Notes under the pieces: model-generated
What the model saw: only the letters and a program-made list of their open reading frames with translations
Database searches by the model: none
Told to the model about the DNA's origin: nothing
From: a virus
UHGV virus genome: UHGV-0212259
Reading direction: 5' to 3' (one strand)
Length of the DNA stretch: 44,951 bases
Program-made: the position numbers and the translations under genes
In this document: in pieces, positions 2,408 through 39,067 of the stretch
How the letters are laid out: each line of letters begins with the position of its first letter
How positions within the stretch are numbered: position 1 is the first letter of the stretch

Positions 2408-2671
2408 CTATTCCAGAATATTCCTCACGTAATCCTGCAACATGAACACTTTCAGACGCAGTTGCCGCACGCATTCTGCGTTCTGAACGTCGATAGCTAA
2501 ATCCTCGTCCGCGTCGCTACTTGGTGGCGCCAGTTTGCACGGCGGCTGCATCATCGTCGTATCCGGGGATGGAATTGGCGTTGGCGACGGCGCGGGACTT
2601 GAGCTGCACGCGCTCAGGGTCAAAAGTGCACACGCTGCGACCAGGCGTTTTAATGTACTTAACGACTTCAC
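2408..2671 (-). CDS. o-spanin (Rz1-like outer-membrane lipoprotein)
   Basis: GTG start with GAGGTGA SD; signal peptide with lipobox LSAC; Pro-rich mature part; starts inside the i-spanin ORF in another frame and extends past its stop. Confidence 0.6.
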   Translation of the reverse strand: MKSLSTLKRLVAACALLTLSACSSSPAPSPTPIPSPDTTMMQPPCKLAPPSSDADEDLAIDVQNAECVRQLRLKVFMLQDYVRNILE

Positions 2672-2903
2672 GGGTAATCACCTCTGATTTCGTCTTGCCT
2701 TCGTTGTCAGCGGCTGCAGCCTTTGATTCGTCCTGCTGCTGCCGTTGTGTTTTCTTCGCTAACTCAGCCTGTGCCTTCTGCTGCTGCTGCGAAACGAGAT
2801 TCGCCCGGCCTTCGCTCCAGCCGCTGCGATACTGGTAGATGCCGTGTGCGTAAGCCAGGATGATGAAACATGCTCCCGCTACGACAGTTGCTTTAAGATT
2901 CAT
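2517..2903 (-). CDS. i-spanin (Rz-like inner-membrane spanin)
   Basis: N-terminal TM helix (VVAGACFIILAYAHGIY) followed by a Gln/Ala/Lys-rich coiled coil; overlaps the lipoprotein ORF in typical spanin architecture. Confidence 0.6.
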   Translation of the reverse strand: MNLKATVVAGACFIILAYAHGIYQYRSGWSEGRANLVSQQQQKAQAELAKKTQRQQQDESKAAAADNEGKTKSEVITREVVKYIKTPGRSVCTFDPERVQLKSRAVANANSIPGYDDDAAAVQTGATK

Positions 2904-3221
2904 GTTTCTCCTTTCTCGATAAGTAAAGCCCCGCCATAAAGCGGGGCGCTAGTCCTTATCATTTAAACATAGAAACGGCATAATCTCAGTAAACCAGTTA
3001 CTTTTTACACAAGCAATAGACTATGGCCCTTCCGAACGCGTCAGCGTAACTACACTCGGACTTAACGTCCGGCTCCGTTACCTGCCACGCCGCGGTCGCT
3101 TGTTCATACTTCACAAGCTCAGGTGGAGCTTAGCACATTTTTGGTGAAAAGTCAACTATTCGAATAGTTTATTCCAACATTTACAATTGAGTGGAATAAC
3201 CGGAATACATAAACAAATAGT

Positions 3222-3253
3222 TTGCGCACCCCAATATAATAGGGTACTATTCA
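3222..3253 (+). promoter_or_regulatory. Promoter with overlapping palindromic operator (type A: TTGCGC-N7-TATAAT overlapping TAATAGGGTACTATTCA)
   Basis: TATAAT at 3235..3240; 23-nt core CCAATATAATAGGGTACTATTCA identical to sites at 5375..5397 and 38826..38848; first ATG 25 nt downstream. Confidence 0.55.
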
Positions 3254-3277
3254 TTCTATCGAACCGGGGAGGCCGTC

Positions 3278-3379
3278 ATGTTAGTCGTTATTTCAGTAGT
3301 AATTGCAGTTGATGCGGTGATGTTTCTTTGGGCTTGTAGCGGTATTGGTGACATTGACACGGGTAATGGTGAACTATGA
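3278..3379 (+). CDS. Small hydrophobic peptide (33 aa), first gene of a plus-strand insert cassette
   Basis: GGGGAGG SD then ATG; MLVVISVVIAVDAVMFLWACSGIG...; stop overlaps next start (ATGA). Confidence 0.3.
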   Translation: MLVVISVVIAVDAVMFLWACSGIGDIDTGNGEL

Positions 3380-3720
3380 AATATATTAAATTAGCAGTAG
3401 CAGGTGTTGTAGCCGTTTGTTTGAGTGGTTGCGTAAGGTCGTTGCCAGACCCGGCTTTACAGGTTTATCAGGCAGGGGATACAACGGCAACATGTAATCA
3501 GTTACTATCGAGAATCGCCACGACAAAACAAGCTCAAGCCAACGCTACGCACCGTGTTAATAAGCAAATAGGTACTAACGTTGTACTCGGTGTTACAGGC
3601 GCATTCCTGATTGTTCCGCTGTTCTTTATGGACACGGGCGCCGGGCCTTCTATGGACGAGATGACAGCCGGTAATCGTCTGTCGCAGTTACAACAAACAT
3701 ACGACGAGAAATGCAAATGA
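3376..3720 (+). CDS. Lipoprotein with a C-proximal hydrophobic segment; candidate superinfection-exclusion / receptor-masking protein
   Basis: Signal peptide with lipobox LSGC (MKYIKLAVAGVVAVCLSGC); hydrophobic stretch NVVLGVTGAFLIVPLFF; opposite strand to flanking late genes; own promoter and terminator. Confidence 0.55.
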   Translation: MKYIKLAVAGVVAVCLSGCVRSLPDPALQVYQAGDTTATCNQLLSRIATTKQAQANATHRVNKQIGTNVVLGVTGAFLIVPLFFMDTGAGPSMDEMTAGNRLSQLQQTYDEKCK

Positions 3721-3785
3721 CAAATAGTGTGATGTTTTATTTTGTTTTGTGGGTATCGGCTGCGGCTATCACCGCGATGTTCATA

Positions 3786-3816
3786 TAAAAATAAAGCCCC
3801 ATAGCGGGGCTTTTTA
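3786..3816. terminator. Bidirectional rho-independent terminator
   Basis: A-run, hairpin AGCCCC-atagc-GGGGCT (3795..3811), T-run; lies between convergent genes. Confidence 0.6.
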
Positions 3817-4275
3817 TCATTCCGGCTTAGTAACCTTCGCCGCTTTACTGACGGCCTCTACCCCATCGGCATCGGTGACTTTAACGAAGTATTCACCCAC
3901 CGCGTTAACCGTCAGAGACAGAGCCTCTTCCGGGGCGTTTACCACTTCCTTCCCGTCTTTGTACCAGGTCAGCGTATACGGCGCTTTACCTGCCTTAACT
4001 TCGACAGTGATAGTCGCGCTGCCGTCATCCAGTTCAGCGTCTTTCGGTTGCCCAGAGAAATACACATCGCCAGCGTCCGCCAGATACGGAATCTCGTAAA
4101 GCATGCCAGCAGCGGGTAACGCAATACCGGTTTTATCTGCAAACGGCATATCGTCCACTGGCGCACCCAGTACACTTTCGTCTTCAATAAATACCACGTT
4201 CTCGCCAGAGCCAGACACTCGGGCGTACTGGACTACACGACGTGAAGGTACATCAGTTACTTTGAAAAAGCCCAT
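3817..4275 (-). CDS. Ig-like domain protein (second), head-associated auxiliary protein
   Basis: 152 aa; Ig-like signature (APYTLTWYKDGKEV...GEYFVKVTDADG); translationally coupled 2 nt after the head morphogenesis gene stop. Confidence 0.5.
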   Translation of the reverse strand: MGFFKVTDVPSRRVVQYARVSGSGENVVFIEDESVLGAPVDDMPFADKTGIALPAAGMLYEIPYLADAGDVYFSGQPKDAELDDGSATITVEVKAGKAPYTLTWYKDGKEVVNAPEEALSLTVNAVGEYFVKVTDADGVEAVSKAAKVTKPE

Positions 4276-5321: not shown

Positions 5322-5365
5322 AAGCCCTCCTGTAGTATAGACAGTGTAACGCATAAAAATAATAT

Positions 5366-5397
5366 TTGCAGACACCAATATAATAGGGTACTATTCA
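5366..5397 (+). promoter_or_regulatory. Promoter with overlapping operator (type A), second copy
   Basis: TTGCAG-N7-TATAAT (5379..5384) overlapping TAATAGGGTACTATTCA; identical 23-nt core to 3231..3253. Confidence 0.55.
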
Positions 5398-5429
5398 TTA
5401 CATCAAAACGAGAGATAAGGAATTTAGAA

Positions 5430-5711
5430 ATGGCTAAATATTCAAACAGTAATTTACATATGACATGTGTGCATGTTGATGGTGTTCAAGTAGAGTGCGT
5501 CGCCTGTTGCAGGCCTTCATGCGAAGAAGGCATATTTAAAATAGGGCGCAAGTATTGGCTGCACCACGGGTGGTTGACGCGACCTAATGGGGATGCCGAT
5601 GTAGAACTTTGGTGGGTAGAGTATCATGGTCGCTCATATATCTGTTGGCCCGAAACGAAAAACGGCACCACCCGATACACCTCTTCCAGCAATGGATTCA
5701 TATTTGTATAA
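5430..5711 (+). CDS. Cys/Trp-rich small protein (93 aa), hypothetical; single-gene plus-strand insert
   Basis: ATG with AAGGAA SD; CVHVDGVQVECVACCRPSCEEG motif; flanked by own promoter and bidirectional terminator between head morphogenesis and portal genes. Confidence 0.45.
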   Translation: MAKYSNSNLHMTCVHVDGVQVECVACCRPSCEEGIFKIGRKYWLHHGWLTRPNGDADVELWWVEYHGRSYICWPETKNGTTRYTSSSNGFIFV

Positions 5712-5713
5712 AG

Positions 5714-5746
5714 AAAAGATAAGGCCCCTTAAGGGGCCTTTCTATT
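5714..5746. terminator. Bidirectional rho-independent terminator
   Basis: Hairpin AGGCCCC-tta-GGGGCCT at 5722..5738 with flanking A/T runs; between convergent Cys-rich gene and portal gene. Confidence 0.55.
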
Positions 5747-7215
5747 TACTCCTGTTGTTGCGCCGACTGCGGAATCTCTCCAGCCACCTGAGTAACAGCA
5801 CCCAACGGCAGAGGTGCGTCCTCAATAGCGTTCTGAATGTCCTCGTCCGTCCAGTCAGTTACACCTGCCTTGCGCAACGCAGCATAATAAGCGGTAGCCG
5901 GTAACAGACCCGCGTTAATATCCGCCATCCACTGAGCACGGTCCTGAGCGGTCATCGGTTGCAGGAAGAACTCCATGTTCAGTTTGAACTCAATCTCTGT
6001 GCCTTCGCGCAGCCCAAGCATCGCTGCCACCCAGCGCAACGCATCGGTGTACGCCATGCTTACGTTACGTGCGATTGTAGCCATAACGGACGTATCAGCG
6101 CCGCGTTGTAGACGGGCGGATTCAGCGGTTATTTGCTGCGTCGGCGTGATAAGCTGCGCGCCAATCTGAATGGCCTGATTCTCTTTATCCAGCATGTTTT
6201 GTTTGGCGAGGTTGTTCTCTCCTGCCTGAACCAGAAACGCATTACCGCCGTAACCAATGTTATGGCCTGAACGCGACCCCATGCGAACGCCGTGCGGGTT
6301 AGCCTCTTTCCACTGTTCCATGCTCATATTCTCACCAGGGGCGATGAACAGAGTGGGCTGGCCCACAACGAAACTGGACTCCTCATTGTCTGCGCTGTTG
6401 CGGAAATGCCCGATATTAAGCTCGGCCAACGGCAGCAAAGGCGCATCGTCGATGGTTGCATCGTTGTTGCTTGCACCAATAAACGTGAACGGGATTTTGC
6501 CGCGCAACTGTTCGCCAAGTTCCGGGAATATTTCGATTACGTCACCATGAGCGCCACCTTCTGCATCGAAGCGGTAAATGCGCTGGCGGTAGCGACCATC
6601 AATCAAATCGAGAACGCGGTATTGCTCACCGAATTTTGTTTCGAACTCTGCCCCAGGTTCCGAGTATTCCCATACCTCCCGTAACACGACCATTGTCACA
6701 CGGTTAACCGAACCGACGCGAGTCAATCGCCAGTTGATGATGTTCTCAGCGGTGTAGAATGCGATGACCGGGTTTAATAATCCCGCGTTCTGTTCTGCTG
6801 CCGTTGCCGCAGCTGTCTCCGGGGCGTCCACCAGCAACCCGCCACGGCCAACCGAGTCAATCTCCATTAGCGTATCCTGCGCGTGCTGCCACAGCCCGAC
6901 ACCAGAACCGTCCGCATTGCGTAACAGGTACTCAAGTTCAGGCGGGATAATCTGCTCAGGGTCTTTGCGCATAACACTGCCAACCATCCCCGCCAGTGTA
7001 CGTTTAGTGAAGTTGTAGCAGATAGCGCCGTTCTCGTATTCTTCCTGGCGCTGTGCTGCGTATGTCGGGTCTGGTTCGTTCTTCCCGACGTTGCGAAGAT
7101 AGCGAATAAGGTCGCCTTCCAGCGCGTGGCGTACCTTCTGCCATTTATCGAAGTGATGCAGCCATTCCCGGTGTTTTGTCTTAACACCCTGATTCTGACC
7201 GTTCATAGTTAACAT
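5746..7215 (-). CDS. Portal protein
   Basis: 489 aa immediately downstream of terminase large subunit; canonical position and size; no motif-level proof. Confidence 0.75.
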   Translation of the reverse strand: MLTMNGQNQGVKTKHREWLHHFDKWQKVRHALEGDLIRYLRNVGKNEPDPTYAAQRQEEYENGAICYNFTKRTLAGMVGSVMRKDPEQIIPPELEYLLRNADGSGVGLWQHAQDTLMEIDSVGRGGLLVDAPETAAATAAEQNAGLLNPVIAFYTAENIINWRLTRVGSVNRVTMVVLREVWEYSEPGAEFETKFGEQYRVLDLIDGRYRQRIYRFDAEGGAHGDVIEIFPELGEQLRGKIPFTFIGASNNDATIDDAPLLPLAELNIGHFRNSADNEESSFVVGQPTLFIAPGENMSMEQWKEANPHGVRMGSRSGHNIGYGGNAFLVQAGENNLAKQNMLDKENQAIQIGAQLITPTQQITAESARLQRGADTSVMATIARNVSMAYTDALRWVAAMLGLREGTEIEFKLNMEFFLQPMTAQDRAQWMADINAGLLPATAYYAALRKAGVTDWTDEDIQNAIEDAPLPLGAVTQVAGEIPQSAQQQE

Positions 7216-11167: not shown

Positions 11168-11196
11168 AATATAATAGGGTCGAAGGTAATAGTCAA
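11168..11196 (-). promoter_or_regulatory. Sigma70-like promoter (TTGACT-17-TATATT) with operator palindrome overlapping the -35
   Basis: Minus-strand TTGACT (11196..11191), 17-nt spacer, TATATT (11173..11168); operator TGAATAGTTGACTATTA spans the -35. Confidence 0.5.
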
Positions 11197-16036: not shown

Positions 16037-16068
16037 TGAATAGTAACCTATTATGTTGGGGTGTGCAA
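16037..16068 (-). promoter_or_regulatory. Promoter with overlapping operator (type A, minus strand)
   Basis: Minus-strand TTGCAC-ACCCCAA-CATAAT-AGGTTACTATTCA, near-identical to the plus-strand 23-nt core. Confidence 0.5.
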
Positions 16069-38709: not shown

Positions 38710-38816
38710 TCTTTAATCCTTTGGTTAAGAGGTTACTGGTTAAGGTGAATGCGCCAGGCGGGAACCACCCGCTTTTCGTGTGCGACACTAGGCGCAAACT
38801 TATTCTAGCACACTAC

Positions 38817-38848
38817 TTGCAGGCCCCAATATAATAGGGTACTATTCA
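38817..38848 (+). promoter_or_regulatory. Promoter with overlapping operator (type A), third identical copy
   Basis: TTGCAG-GCCCCAA-TATAAT (38830..38835) overlapping TAATAGGGTACTATTCA. Confidence 0.55.
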
Positions 38849-38875
38849 CTTACACCAACAACGAAGGGGTTTAAA

Positions 38876-39067
38876 ATGTCAAGTTTACCAGTTTCCTTAA
38901 TTCTGTTTGCACTGCTCGTCTATTTCGCACCTTTCCTGGTTGCGTACTTCCGTAACCATAAAGCGAAGTTAGCGATATTCATGGCTAATCTGTTTCTTGG
39001 CTGGGTTCTTCTACCGTGGGTATTTATTTTAATCTGGGCTTGCAACTCGAACGTTAAAGAGAAGTGA
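38876..39067 (+). CDS. Small membrane protein (2 TM)
   Basis: 63 aa; two hydrophobic helices (LILFALLVYFAPFLVAYF, LFLGWVLLPWVFILIWA). Confidence 0.45.
   Translation: MSSLPVSLILFALLVYFAPFLVAYFRNHKAKLAIFMANLFLGWVLLPWVFILIWACNSNVKEK

Follow-up and report, generated by a model that had tools for sequence, protein, structure and literature searches.

A moron of a lytic Kagunavirus encodes a lipoprotein of a large unannotated family, a candidate for superinfection exclusion

Why would a strictly lytic phage carry a small lipoprotein gene between its spanin and head genes, on the strand opposite to both? The question is raised by positions 3222-3816 of the UHGV virus genome UHGV-0212259, a stretch of 44,951 nucleotides that we refer to as the window. 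An earlier note on this DNA described there a two-gene plus-strand unit for a lipoprotein with a hydrophobic segment and suggested superinfection exclusion, either by masking of the phage's own receptor or by a block to DNA entry. Here we identify the cassette as a moron that occupies a hypervariable cargo slot, and we find purifying selection on its lipoprotein gene. The encoded lipoprotein appears to belong to a new family, unrelated to the known small exclusion lipoproteins of mobile elements, for which exclusion is a candidate role. The reading we favor, held tentatively and as something short of probable, is that the lipoprotein blocks DNA delivery after adsorption, in the manner of the SieA, Imm, or TraT type, rather than masking a protein receptor.

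A hypervariable cargo slot

The phage carrying the window is a lytic E. coli/Shigella Kagunavirus (Guernseyvirinae), a siphophage. The 931 bases around the cassette share 99.8% identity with Shigella phage phiSD1 and 96-99% with ten further Escherichia phage records of the same genus. The query matches 181 phage records, only 11 of which match past about position 370, beyond the promoter. The other relatives hold unrelated plus-strand genes between the same promoter and a shared terminator, coding for an 81-residue protein in Raoultella phage RP180 and for proteins of 67, 57, 83, 70, and 173 residues in other contigs. The cassette itself is on the plus strand, with both neighbors (the spanin genes and a Hoc-like head-decoration gene) on the minus strand, and has a predicted promoter and terminator of its own. 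As the cargo is found in only 11 of the 181 relatives, with unrelated genes in the slot otherwise, the cassette is a moron.

The cassette is closed by a bidirectional intrinsic terminator at 3793-3813 (AAAGCCCC-ATAG-CGGGGCTTT), a stem-loop with an A-tract and a T-tract that scores on both strands and ends both the cassette and the convergent Hoc-like gene. It is annotated on both strands in fBC-Eco01 and is kept in relatives with different cargo. In the record of RP180 (L002), a minus-strand ORF6 is annotated across the slot at 3370-3615. The sequence there holds the plus-strand open reading frame (ORF) of 81 codons, with a Shine-Dalgarno (SD) sequence directly behind the promoter and its end at the shared terminator, and the strand of ORF6 is probably mis-annotated.

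The promoter lies within a repeat, D1, that has three plus-strand copies in the window (3208-3266, 5352-5410, and 38803-38861). Behind the second copy, between the head-morphogenesis and portal genes, is a single-gene plus-strand cassette in an equally variable slot. Its gene (5430-5711, plus strand) codes for a 93-residue Cys-rich protein of no family, and a terminator-like hairpin at 5719-5750 closes the cassette. Under the third copy is a gene (38876-39067, plus strand) for a 63-residue membrane protein of the T4 Imm type (PF14373, Imm_superinfect; E=3.9e-13, with 49.5 bits where the cut-off is 27.9). Thus, one sister of the cassette promoter heads a gene of a known exclusion family. The content of both slots differs in other phages: in fBC-Eco01 the second holds a 173-residue protein labelled 'sliding clamp', for which the Pfam match is weak (E=0.0068), and in other Kagunaviruses a 108-residue signal-peptide protein stands in the third instead of the PF14373 protein.

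The lipoprotein and its family

The 114-residue prolipoprotein is encoded at 3376-3720 on the plus strand. Its predicted signal peptide (residues 1-18, MKYIKLAVAGVVAVCLSG, directly before the Cys) has two Lys in the n-region, a hydrophobic core, and the lipobox L-S-G-C. The predicted lipidation site, Cys19 (codon 3430-3432), is invariant in all 123 aligned family members. Position -1 is G, A, or S in 122 of these 123 and position -3 is L, V, or I in 108. At position +2 the window protein has Val and the family A, G, or V, never Asp. In enterobacteria a lipoprotein without Asp at +2 is, by the Lol rule, sorted to the outer membrane, and we therefore predict this destination for the window protein. 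The product of the gene is very likely an envelope lipoprotein.

Selection was assessed against a divergent copy in the same slot of L021, a metagenomic Kagunavirus-like contig. The two lipoproteins are 82% identical in amino-acid and 76% in nucleotide sequence, with a ratio of nonsynonymous to synonymous substitution rates (dN/dS) of 0.107. The gene is under purifying selection.

The lipoprotein matches phrog_13472, a family of unknown function, from residue 3 to 114 (profile positions 1-113 of 113; E=1.2e-44). Nothing was found for it in Pfam, NCBIfam, or PADLOC, the only Pfam match at E<=1 being a chance match to T2SSF, and scans of the homologues and of ten long family members against these three databases gave no usable match. 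Relatives are numerous. A word-seeded search found 20 and a profile search 1,047 at E<=1e-5, while a hidden Markov model search of 1.84 billion representatives returned 1,464 clusters (50% identity) at E<=1e-3, with 713 at E<=1e-10.

The invariant positions of the 123-sequence alignment are C19, D35, C40, N68, L71, G72, G75, P81, F84, D86, R101, L105, and C113. Conservation is highest in residues 67-86 (3574-3633, plus strand), the lowest-entropy segment, with the family signature K-N-x-x-L-G-V-T-G-x-F-L-I-V-P-L-F-F-M-D. The window protein reads K-N-V-A-L-G-V-T-G-A-F-L-I-V-P-L-F-F-M-D here, and mean entropy is 0.42 bits compared with 1.4-1.9 elsewhere in the mature protein. Residues ~69-85 are hydrophobic (Kyte-Doolittle >1.7). 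The lipobox LSGC and the hydrophobic segment singled out in the earlier note are both present; the family shares the lipobox Cys and the hydrophobic motif, the latter being its most conserved part.

With the 123-sequence alignment, AlphaFold2 (AF2) gave a model with a predicted local distance difference test score (pLDDT) of 68.7 and confident helices at residues 40-72 and 93-112 (blocks at pLDDT 73-88). A first run with 21 sequences had given 59.7; the larger alignment improved the helices and not the hydrophobic tip. The predicted fold is a helical hairpin with the hydrophobic tip between its two helices. Cys40 and Cys113 are invariant and would meet at the open end of an antiparallel hairpin, which suggests that a periplasmic disulfide closes it. 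As the conserved hydrophobic segment cannot be placed in the monomer model, the model also suggests that the tip inserts into a membrane or packs into an oligomer. The best structural matches, at E>1, were to generic alpha-hairpins such as that of AcrA and were rejected as evidence. The label 'putative structural protein' on HSE2 gp35 was also rejected, being a BLAST annotation with no proteomics behind it.

Genomic positions of the homologues

P22-like prophages of Citrobacter, Kluyvera, and related enterobacteria carry the gene directly after gene 16 (ejection protein, PF26808) and before mnt/arc/ant and the tailspike gene. Three protein variants (P0007, P0173, and P0004) are placed this way at no fewer than six loci, including L065, L066, and L068, in a unit made up of a hairpin after gene 16, CTTACA-N17-TATAAA, the gene, and a terminator. 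The interval between P22 genes 16 and 9 is the sieA slot, and only 22 of 66 P22-like phages have sieA (PMC10883804). The P22-like prophages with the homologue have no identifiable sieA. A Citrobacter-type homologue is also found on a plasmid contig (L007, 7840-8450; Tn3, Rep3, ParE), still joined to its hairpin and promoter and to ~70 bases from the end of gene 16. This remnant of gene 16 shows that the whole moron moved from a P22-like prophage to the plasmid.

Other mobile elements carry the gene at other sites. Its neighbors in Yersinia prophages are a large virion structural protein on one side and the tailspike on the other. Alcaligenes prophages have it in the lambdoid immunity region, between an N-like antiterminator and a CI-like repressor, or near an Acb2/Tad1-like gene, with one portable promoter-gene-terminator block used at both sites. 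In a Seleniivibrio integrative and conjugative element (ICE) it directly follows TraH-TraG_N and precedes restriction-modification and BREX genes. Exclusion genes adjoin traG in F and SXT, and in F these are traS and traT. Some homologues adjoin integrases, as in a marine integrative element. The lytic Autographiviridae of Aeromonas (phiAS7, LAh1-5, CF7, and yong1) encode a divergent homologue among the small early genes upstream of primase, which keeps every invariant polar and Cys position, including N68, G72, G75, and D86. Directly after the homologue, phage CF7 (L162) encodes at 3837-4037 a 66-residue protein with two long hydrophobic stretches (phrog_34552, unknown function), an echo of the small hydrophobic ORF 3' of the lipoprotein gene in the window.

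Taking one genome per GTDB species, we found 130 relatives. They represent the Alpha-, Beta-, and Gammaproteobacteria, the Legionellales with Rickettsiella, Wolbachia, Nitrospinota, Omnitrophota, Planctomycetota, Deferribacterota, and others.

Promoter and small ORFs of the cassette

The predicted promoter (3222-3250, plus strand) is the core of the first D1 copy and consists of a -35 TTGCGC at 3222-3227, a 17-nucleotide spacer, and a -10 TACTAT at 3245-3250. An exact 23-mer core (CCAATATAATAGGGTACTATTCA) is present in 38 IMG/VR stretches. An SD sequence and a plus-strand ORF lie 22-41 nucleotides downstream of this core in all 38 loci and also in related GenBank phages. Because they always lie downstream in this comparison, we take D1 to function as a plus-strand promoter. 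PHIRE flagged the element as a phage promoter in fBC-Eco01. The D1 core also reads as a minus-strand promoter, TCGATA-18-TATATT, and the element may therefore fire both ways.

Overlapping the -10 is an operator-like palindrome, AATAG-GGTA-CTATT (3238-3251). The window has 14 instances of the pattern AATAG-N4-CTATT where 1.08 are expected, and none of 100 shuffles reached 14. On the plus strand it is in the spacer of strong TTGACA-N17-TATAGT-type promoters at 16039, 19482, 19526, 22011, and 26091, and these five promoters sit in a plus-strand region with large replication-type ORFs. Further occurrences are at 11188, 14443, and 14826. The pattern is a candidate for the common operator of a phage regulator. 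Since the palindrome is shared, it is a reasonable inference that the cassette promoter is co-regulated with the early and replication genes. Upstream of the promoter, at 3160-3175, an inverted palindrome, AACTATT-CG-AATAGTT, has the same half-sites in reverse order. With its three D1 copies, its constant downstream SD and ORF, and its recurrent palindrome, the promoter was fairly described in the earlier note as conserved and operator-bearing, and the bidirectional terminator named there is also present.

The two genes of that description, one of 33 codons at 3278-3379 and the 114-codon lipoprotein gene, are in place and joined at an ATGA. The count of two does not stand. The cassette is made up of three ORFs joined by ATGA overlaps, the third having been missed and the first being optional. 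The first ORF (plus strand, MLVVISVVIAVDAVMFLWACSGIGDIDTGNGEL) codes for one hydrophobic helix and an acidic tail, and a Shine-Dalgarno sequence, GGGGAGG (3266-3272, plus strand), read from the sequence, is 5 nucleotides upstream of its ATG. It is lineage-specific, being full-length only in the 11 lipoprotein-carrying phage records. In L021 it is absent, and the lipoprotein gene, with a GTG start and a strong SD, is directly behind the promoter. To judge from this comparison the 33-codon ORF is dispensable. PHROG and Pfam scans placed it in no family. Because its own SD is strong and that of the lipoprotein gene in the window is poor, the ORF is most likely a translated leader that couples into the lipoprotein gene.

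The third ORF (3717-3788, plus strand, MTNSVMFYFVLWVSAAAITAMFI) overlaps the lipoprotein stop by ATGA and codes for 23 residues with a single hydrophobic helix. It is found in all 11 lipoprotein-carrying phage records and annotated in none. Its counterpart in L021 (MTNSLGFYAVLWVTAAVITGMFI) keeps frame and length at 68% nucleotide identity, and the differences are distributed 4/4/14 over the three codon positions, with a nonsynonymous value (pN) of 0.15 and a synonymous value (pS) of 0.93. It is a real gene under purifying selection. Rfam and tRNA scans of the cassette region found nothing.

A possible block to DNA delivery

The cassette is a variable moron, a PF14373 gene is under a sister copy of its promoter, and homologues are found in the sieA slot, in immunity regions, after traG, and in early regions. 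In this way the genomic context supports the suggestion of exclusion in the earlier note. We prefer a block to DNA delivery among the possible mechanisms because it fits the sieA slot, the traG neighborhood, and the early position in lytic phages.

In the mechanism we propose, the sigma-70-type promoter with its recurrent palindromic operator would fire, probably co-regulated with the early and replication promoters. The transcript would carry the optional 33-codon leader ORF, the prolipoprotein gene, and the gene for the 23-residue membrane peptide, all translationally coupled. The prolipoprotein would be exported by Sec, lipidated at Cys19, and then cleaved of its signal peptide, and the Cys40-Cys113 disulfide would form in the periplasm. 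The mature helical hairpin of ~95 residues would insert its tip (N-x3-G-x2-G-...-P-...-D) in the membrane or pack it in an oligomer. With the envelope so altered, the DNA of a second phage would not be delivered across the periplasm. For elements such as ICEs, the DNA kept out would be that of a conjugative donor.

Several points weigh against this proposal. All of the functional evidence is positional, and it is from genomic position alone that we infer exclusion of incoming DNA. The literature search yielded neither a description of such a lipoprotein nor a tested phenotype for any family member. The promoter, TTGCGC-N17-TACTAT, is a weak sigma-70 match (7 of 12 consensus positions), and a simple promoter scan did not call it. 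In the AF2 model the hydrophobic segment between the helices is at pLDDT <50, a low confidence, and neither a profile search of PDB sequences nor Foldseek searches of PDB and BFVD found a structural analogue. With an Imm-type gene already in the phage, another gene for exclusion would have to act on a different target. Finally, many of the GTDB homologues have ordinary chromosomal neighbors, and the two loci that were looked up have plain housekeeping surroundings. In the Legionellales clade the gene keeps its place between type IV minor-pilin genes and pepA-lptF-lptG. No other conserved synteny was found for the family. This clade comprises loci L093, L111, L119, L120, L123, L125-L127, and L139, from Rickettsiella, Aquirickettsiella, and related metagenome-assembled genomes (MAGs), with one contig in a Wolbachia-labelled MAG. 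Outside the clade, all-against-all clustering of the neighbors at 80 GTDB loci found no conserved partner. Given the ordinary neighbors and the fixed Legionellales position, the ancestral function of the family was probably a cellular role in the envelope. Because some members are plainly chromosomal, the family as a whole cannot have exclusion as its function.

The protein could instead be a general envelope-fitness or stabilizing lipoprotein, in the manner of SlyB, Bor, or TraT, acting in lysogenic conversion or, in a lytic phage, keeping the envelope intact until lysis or tuning its permeability, with no specific exclusion. The very wide taxonomy, the chromosomal copies with housekeeping neighbors, and the stable Legionellales position agree with this, as does a hydrophobic core that is near-invariant across phyla, which suggests a conserved cellular partner or membrane and not a fast-evolving phage target. 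However, serum or stress resistance would be of little value to a strictly lytic phage within one cycle, and a general role leaves unexplained why the family turns up again and again in slots for exclusion and immunity genes and among the early genes of lytic phages. There is also no homology to Bor, and no TraT- or SlyB-annotated family was among the Pfam and NCBIfam matches. We consider a purely general envelope role unlikely.

Equally unlikely in our estimate is a broader version of the exclusion proposal, in which the family acts as a general 'envelope lock' co-opted by unlike mobile elements and blocks both phage ejection and DNA delivery by conjugative type IV secretion, with the 23-residue peptide as its partner in Kagunaviruses. 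The elements concerned would be lytic sipho- and podophages, P22-like and lambdoid prophages, ICEs, plasmids, and small integrative elements.

A role in counter-defense, by which the protein would neutralize an envelope-associated host anti-phage system or a host lipoprotein-dependent process, we regard as improbable. The early or accessory position would suit it, one Alcaligenes prophage copy is near the Acb2/Tad1-like anti-defense gene, and the ICE copies adjoin restriction-modification and BREX cargo. Yet the prophage copies are autonomous promoter-gene-terminator units, apparently for expression in the lysogen, which fits protection of the host better. No PADLOC or other defense-related match was found, and no candidate target is known.

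Masking of the phage's own receptor is no better placed. In this case, as for T5 Llp and the Cor proteins of phi80 and N15, the lipoprotein would inactivate the outer-membrane protein receptor by binding to its periplasmic side, and so prevent superinfection and the loss of progeny on cell debris. A small, probably early, predicted outer-membrane lipoprotein in a lytic siphophage has the outline of Llp (PMC9586334). PHROG gave a weak match to Cor (phrog_1119, E=0.29), but over residues 1-37 only, mostly signal peptide. This was the only superinfection-exclusion family matched in the PHROG and Pfam scans at E<=1, which returned none with the annotation Llp, SieA, or TraT. The predicted fold is a helical hairpin, and its most conserved part is a hydrophobic motif, not a variable binding surface. 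Kagunaviruses depend on O-antigen or capsule glycans, which they engage through tailspikes, and no protein receptor is known for them (PMC11990801). Nor can the P22-like podophage prophages, Alcaligenes lambdoid prophages, ICE, and Aeromonas T7-like phages share one protein receptor. With no homology, glycan receptors, and a family spread over such elements, masking is the weaker mechanism, and this part of the earlier proposal is not borne out.

Least probable of all is a lysis accessory, in which lipoprotein and hydrophobic peptides would delay or tune outer-membrane disruption with or on the spanins as an anti-spanin or lysis timer: the cassette is head-to-head with the i/o-spanin genes at 2408-2903, the o-spanin is itself an outer-membrane lipoprotein, and small hydrophobic peptides are typical of lysis cassettes, but the spanins are conserved while the slot cargo is unrelated in most relatives, homologues elsewhere are not beside lysis genes, the PHROG scan gave no lysis match for any of the three cassette ORFs, and the promoter shares its operator class with replication-gene promoters.

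Flanking genes and the conserved upstream stretch

PHROG matches confirm that this plus-strand unit is between minus-strand spanin and Hoc-like head genes. On one side is the overlapped i/o-spanin pair (2408-2903, minus strand; phrog_2536, E=8.9e-57; phrog_5672/1267) and on the other the Hoc-like head-decoration gene (3817-4275, minus strand; phrog_3945, E=1.2e-85). The o-spanin ORF (2408-2671, minus strand) codes for 87 residues with a lipobox LTLSAC and overlaps the i-spanin gene by 155 nucleotides. In fBC-Eco01 the o-spanin is annotated only as a 48-residue fragment, which would be without a signal peptide, and several phage records have no o-spanin annotated.

A non-coding stretch of ~370 nucleotides at 2904-3270 is 93-98% identical across 181 Escherichia, Salmonella, and Raoultella phages and is conserved more widely than the adjoining cargo. 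Directly before the spanin start it has a minus-strand terminator (2947-2928), and it also contains a 38-codon ORF at 2998-3114 on the minus strand. Its minus strand folds better than shuffled controls (z=-2.84), and an Rfam scan gave no match for it. A small RNA is one possible role of the stretch, a regulated leader of the spanin-scaffold-capsid genes another.

Implications

The family is much larger than the known small exclusion lipoproteins and is without annotation, having no Pfam, NCBIfam, or PDB relative. If the lipoprotein does block DNA delivery, a large set of 'hypothetical lipoproteins' would gain a name, and what fills the sieA slot in P22-like prophages without sieA would be explained. 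A compact protein of 95 residues would also become available as a tool to study how phage and plasmid DNA crosses the periplasm. Kagunaviruses are candidates for therapy and chassis for synthetic biology, and an exclusion gene bears on the design of phage cocktails. If it is instead a general envelope factor, the family would still be an uncharacterized conserved component of the Gram-negative envelope.

Comparison with known systems

Small accessory lipoproteins that stop DNA entry are, to our knowledge, represented by few unrelated examples (Llp, Cor, TraT, TrbK, and Sfx), with mechanisms that are mostly poorly understood. Sfx of IncC, which we mention for context, is reportedly an exclusion lipoprotein of 286 residues unrelated to known exclusion factors.

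Lambda Bor/Iss and the window protein are alike in being small phage lipoproteins with two further Cys, a Gly-containing hydrophobic stretch, and spanins adjoining on the opposite strand. Bor was considered as a relative for its N..G..G..P pattern, C-terminal Cys, and spanin neighbors, and was rejected as hhalign gave a probability of 13.4% over 20 columns, all in the signal peptide. The lipoprotein has no Pfam match to Bor/Iss (PF06291). Bor is linked to the serum resistance of lysogens, for which a lytic phage has no obvious use.

T5 Llp and the Cor proteins of phi80, N15, and T1 are also small phage lipoproteins, with a proposed role in keeping further phage out (PMC9586334; bioRxiv 10.64898/2026.03.26.714494). 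Llp, moreover, is made soon after infection by a lytic siphophage (PMC9586334). Llp and Cor act on a protein receptor, FhuA, whereas Kagunaviruses use glycans (PMC11990801). Unlike them, the window protein is predicted to be a helical hairpin with a hydrophobic tip, and its family spans many phyla and types of mobile element.

With the T4 Imm type, represented in this phage by the 63-residue PF14373 protein under the sister promoter, the lipoprotein would share being a small envelope protein, probably early, of a lytic phage. T4 Imm, which is integral to the inner membrane and has no lipobox, is unrelated in sequence to the window lipoprotein.

The likeness to P22 SieA is one of genomic position only, apart from the proposed effect, which would likewise stop DNA delivery once the phage has adsorbed. 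The gene 16-gene 9 slot is shared by SieA with the homologues in P22-like prophages and not with the window phage itself (PMC10883804). SieA is an inner-membrane protein (PMC10883804), whereas the window protein has a predicted cleavable lipoprotein signal, and PHROG and Pfam scans found no similarity between them.

TraT is an outer-membrane lipoprotein that forms an oligomer, with a lipid anchor and hydrophobic or amphipathic alpha-helices (PMC11733297). Its protomers (PF05818) have a beta-sandwich domain (PMC11733297), whereas the window protein has ~95 mature residues and is predicted to be all-helical; it has no TraT (PF05818) match in Pfam at E<=1. One homologue of the window protein, that in the ICE, is directly after traG. 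The closest parallel is in history. Our family probably began as a cellular envelope protein that was captured repeatedly by mobile elements, and the same has recently been inferred for TraT, which has homologues in many phyla and whose chromosomal homologues were co-opted repeatedly by plasmids for exclusion (PMC11733297).

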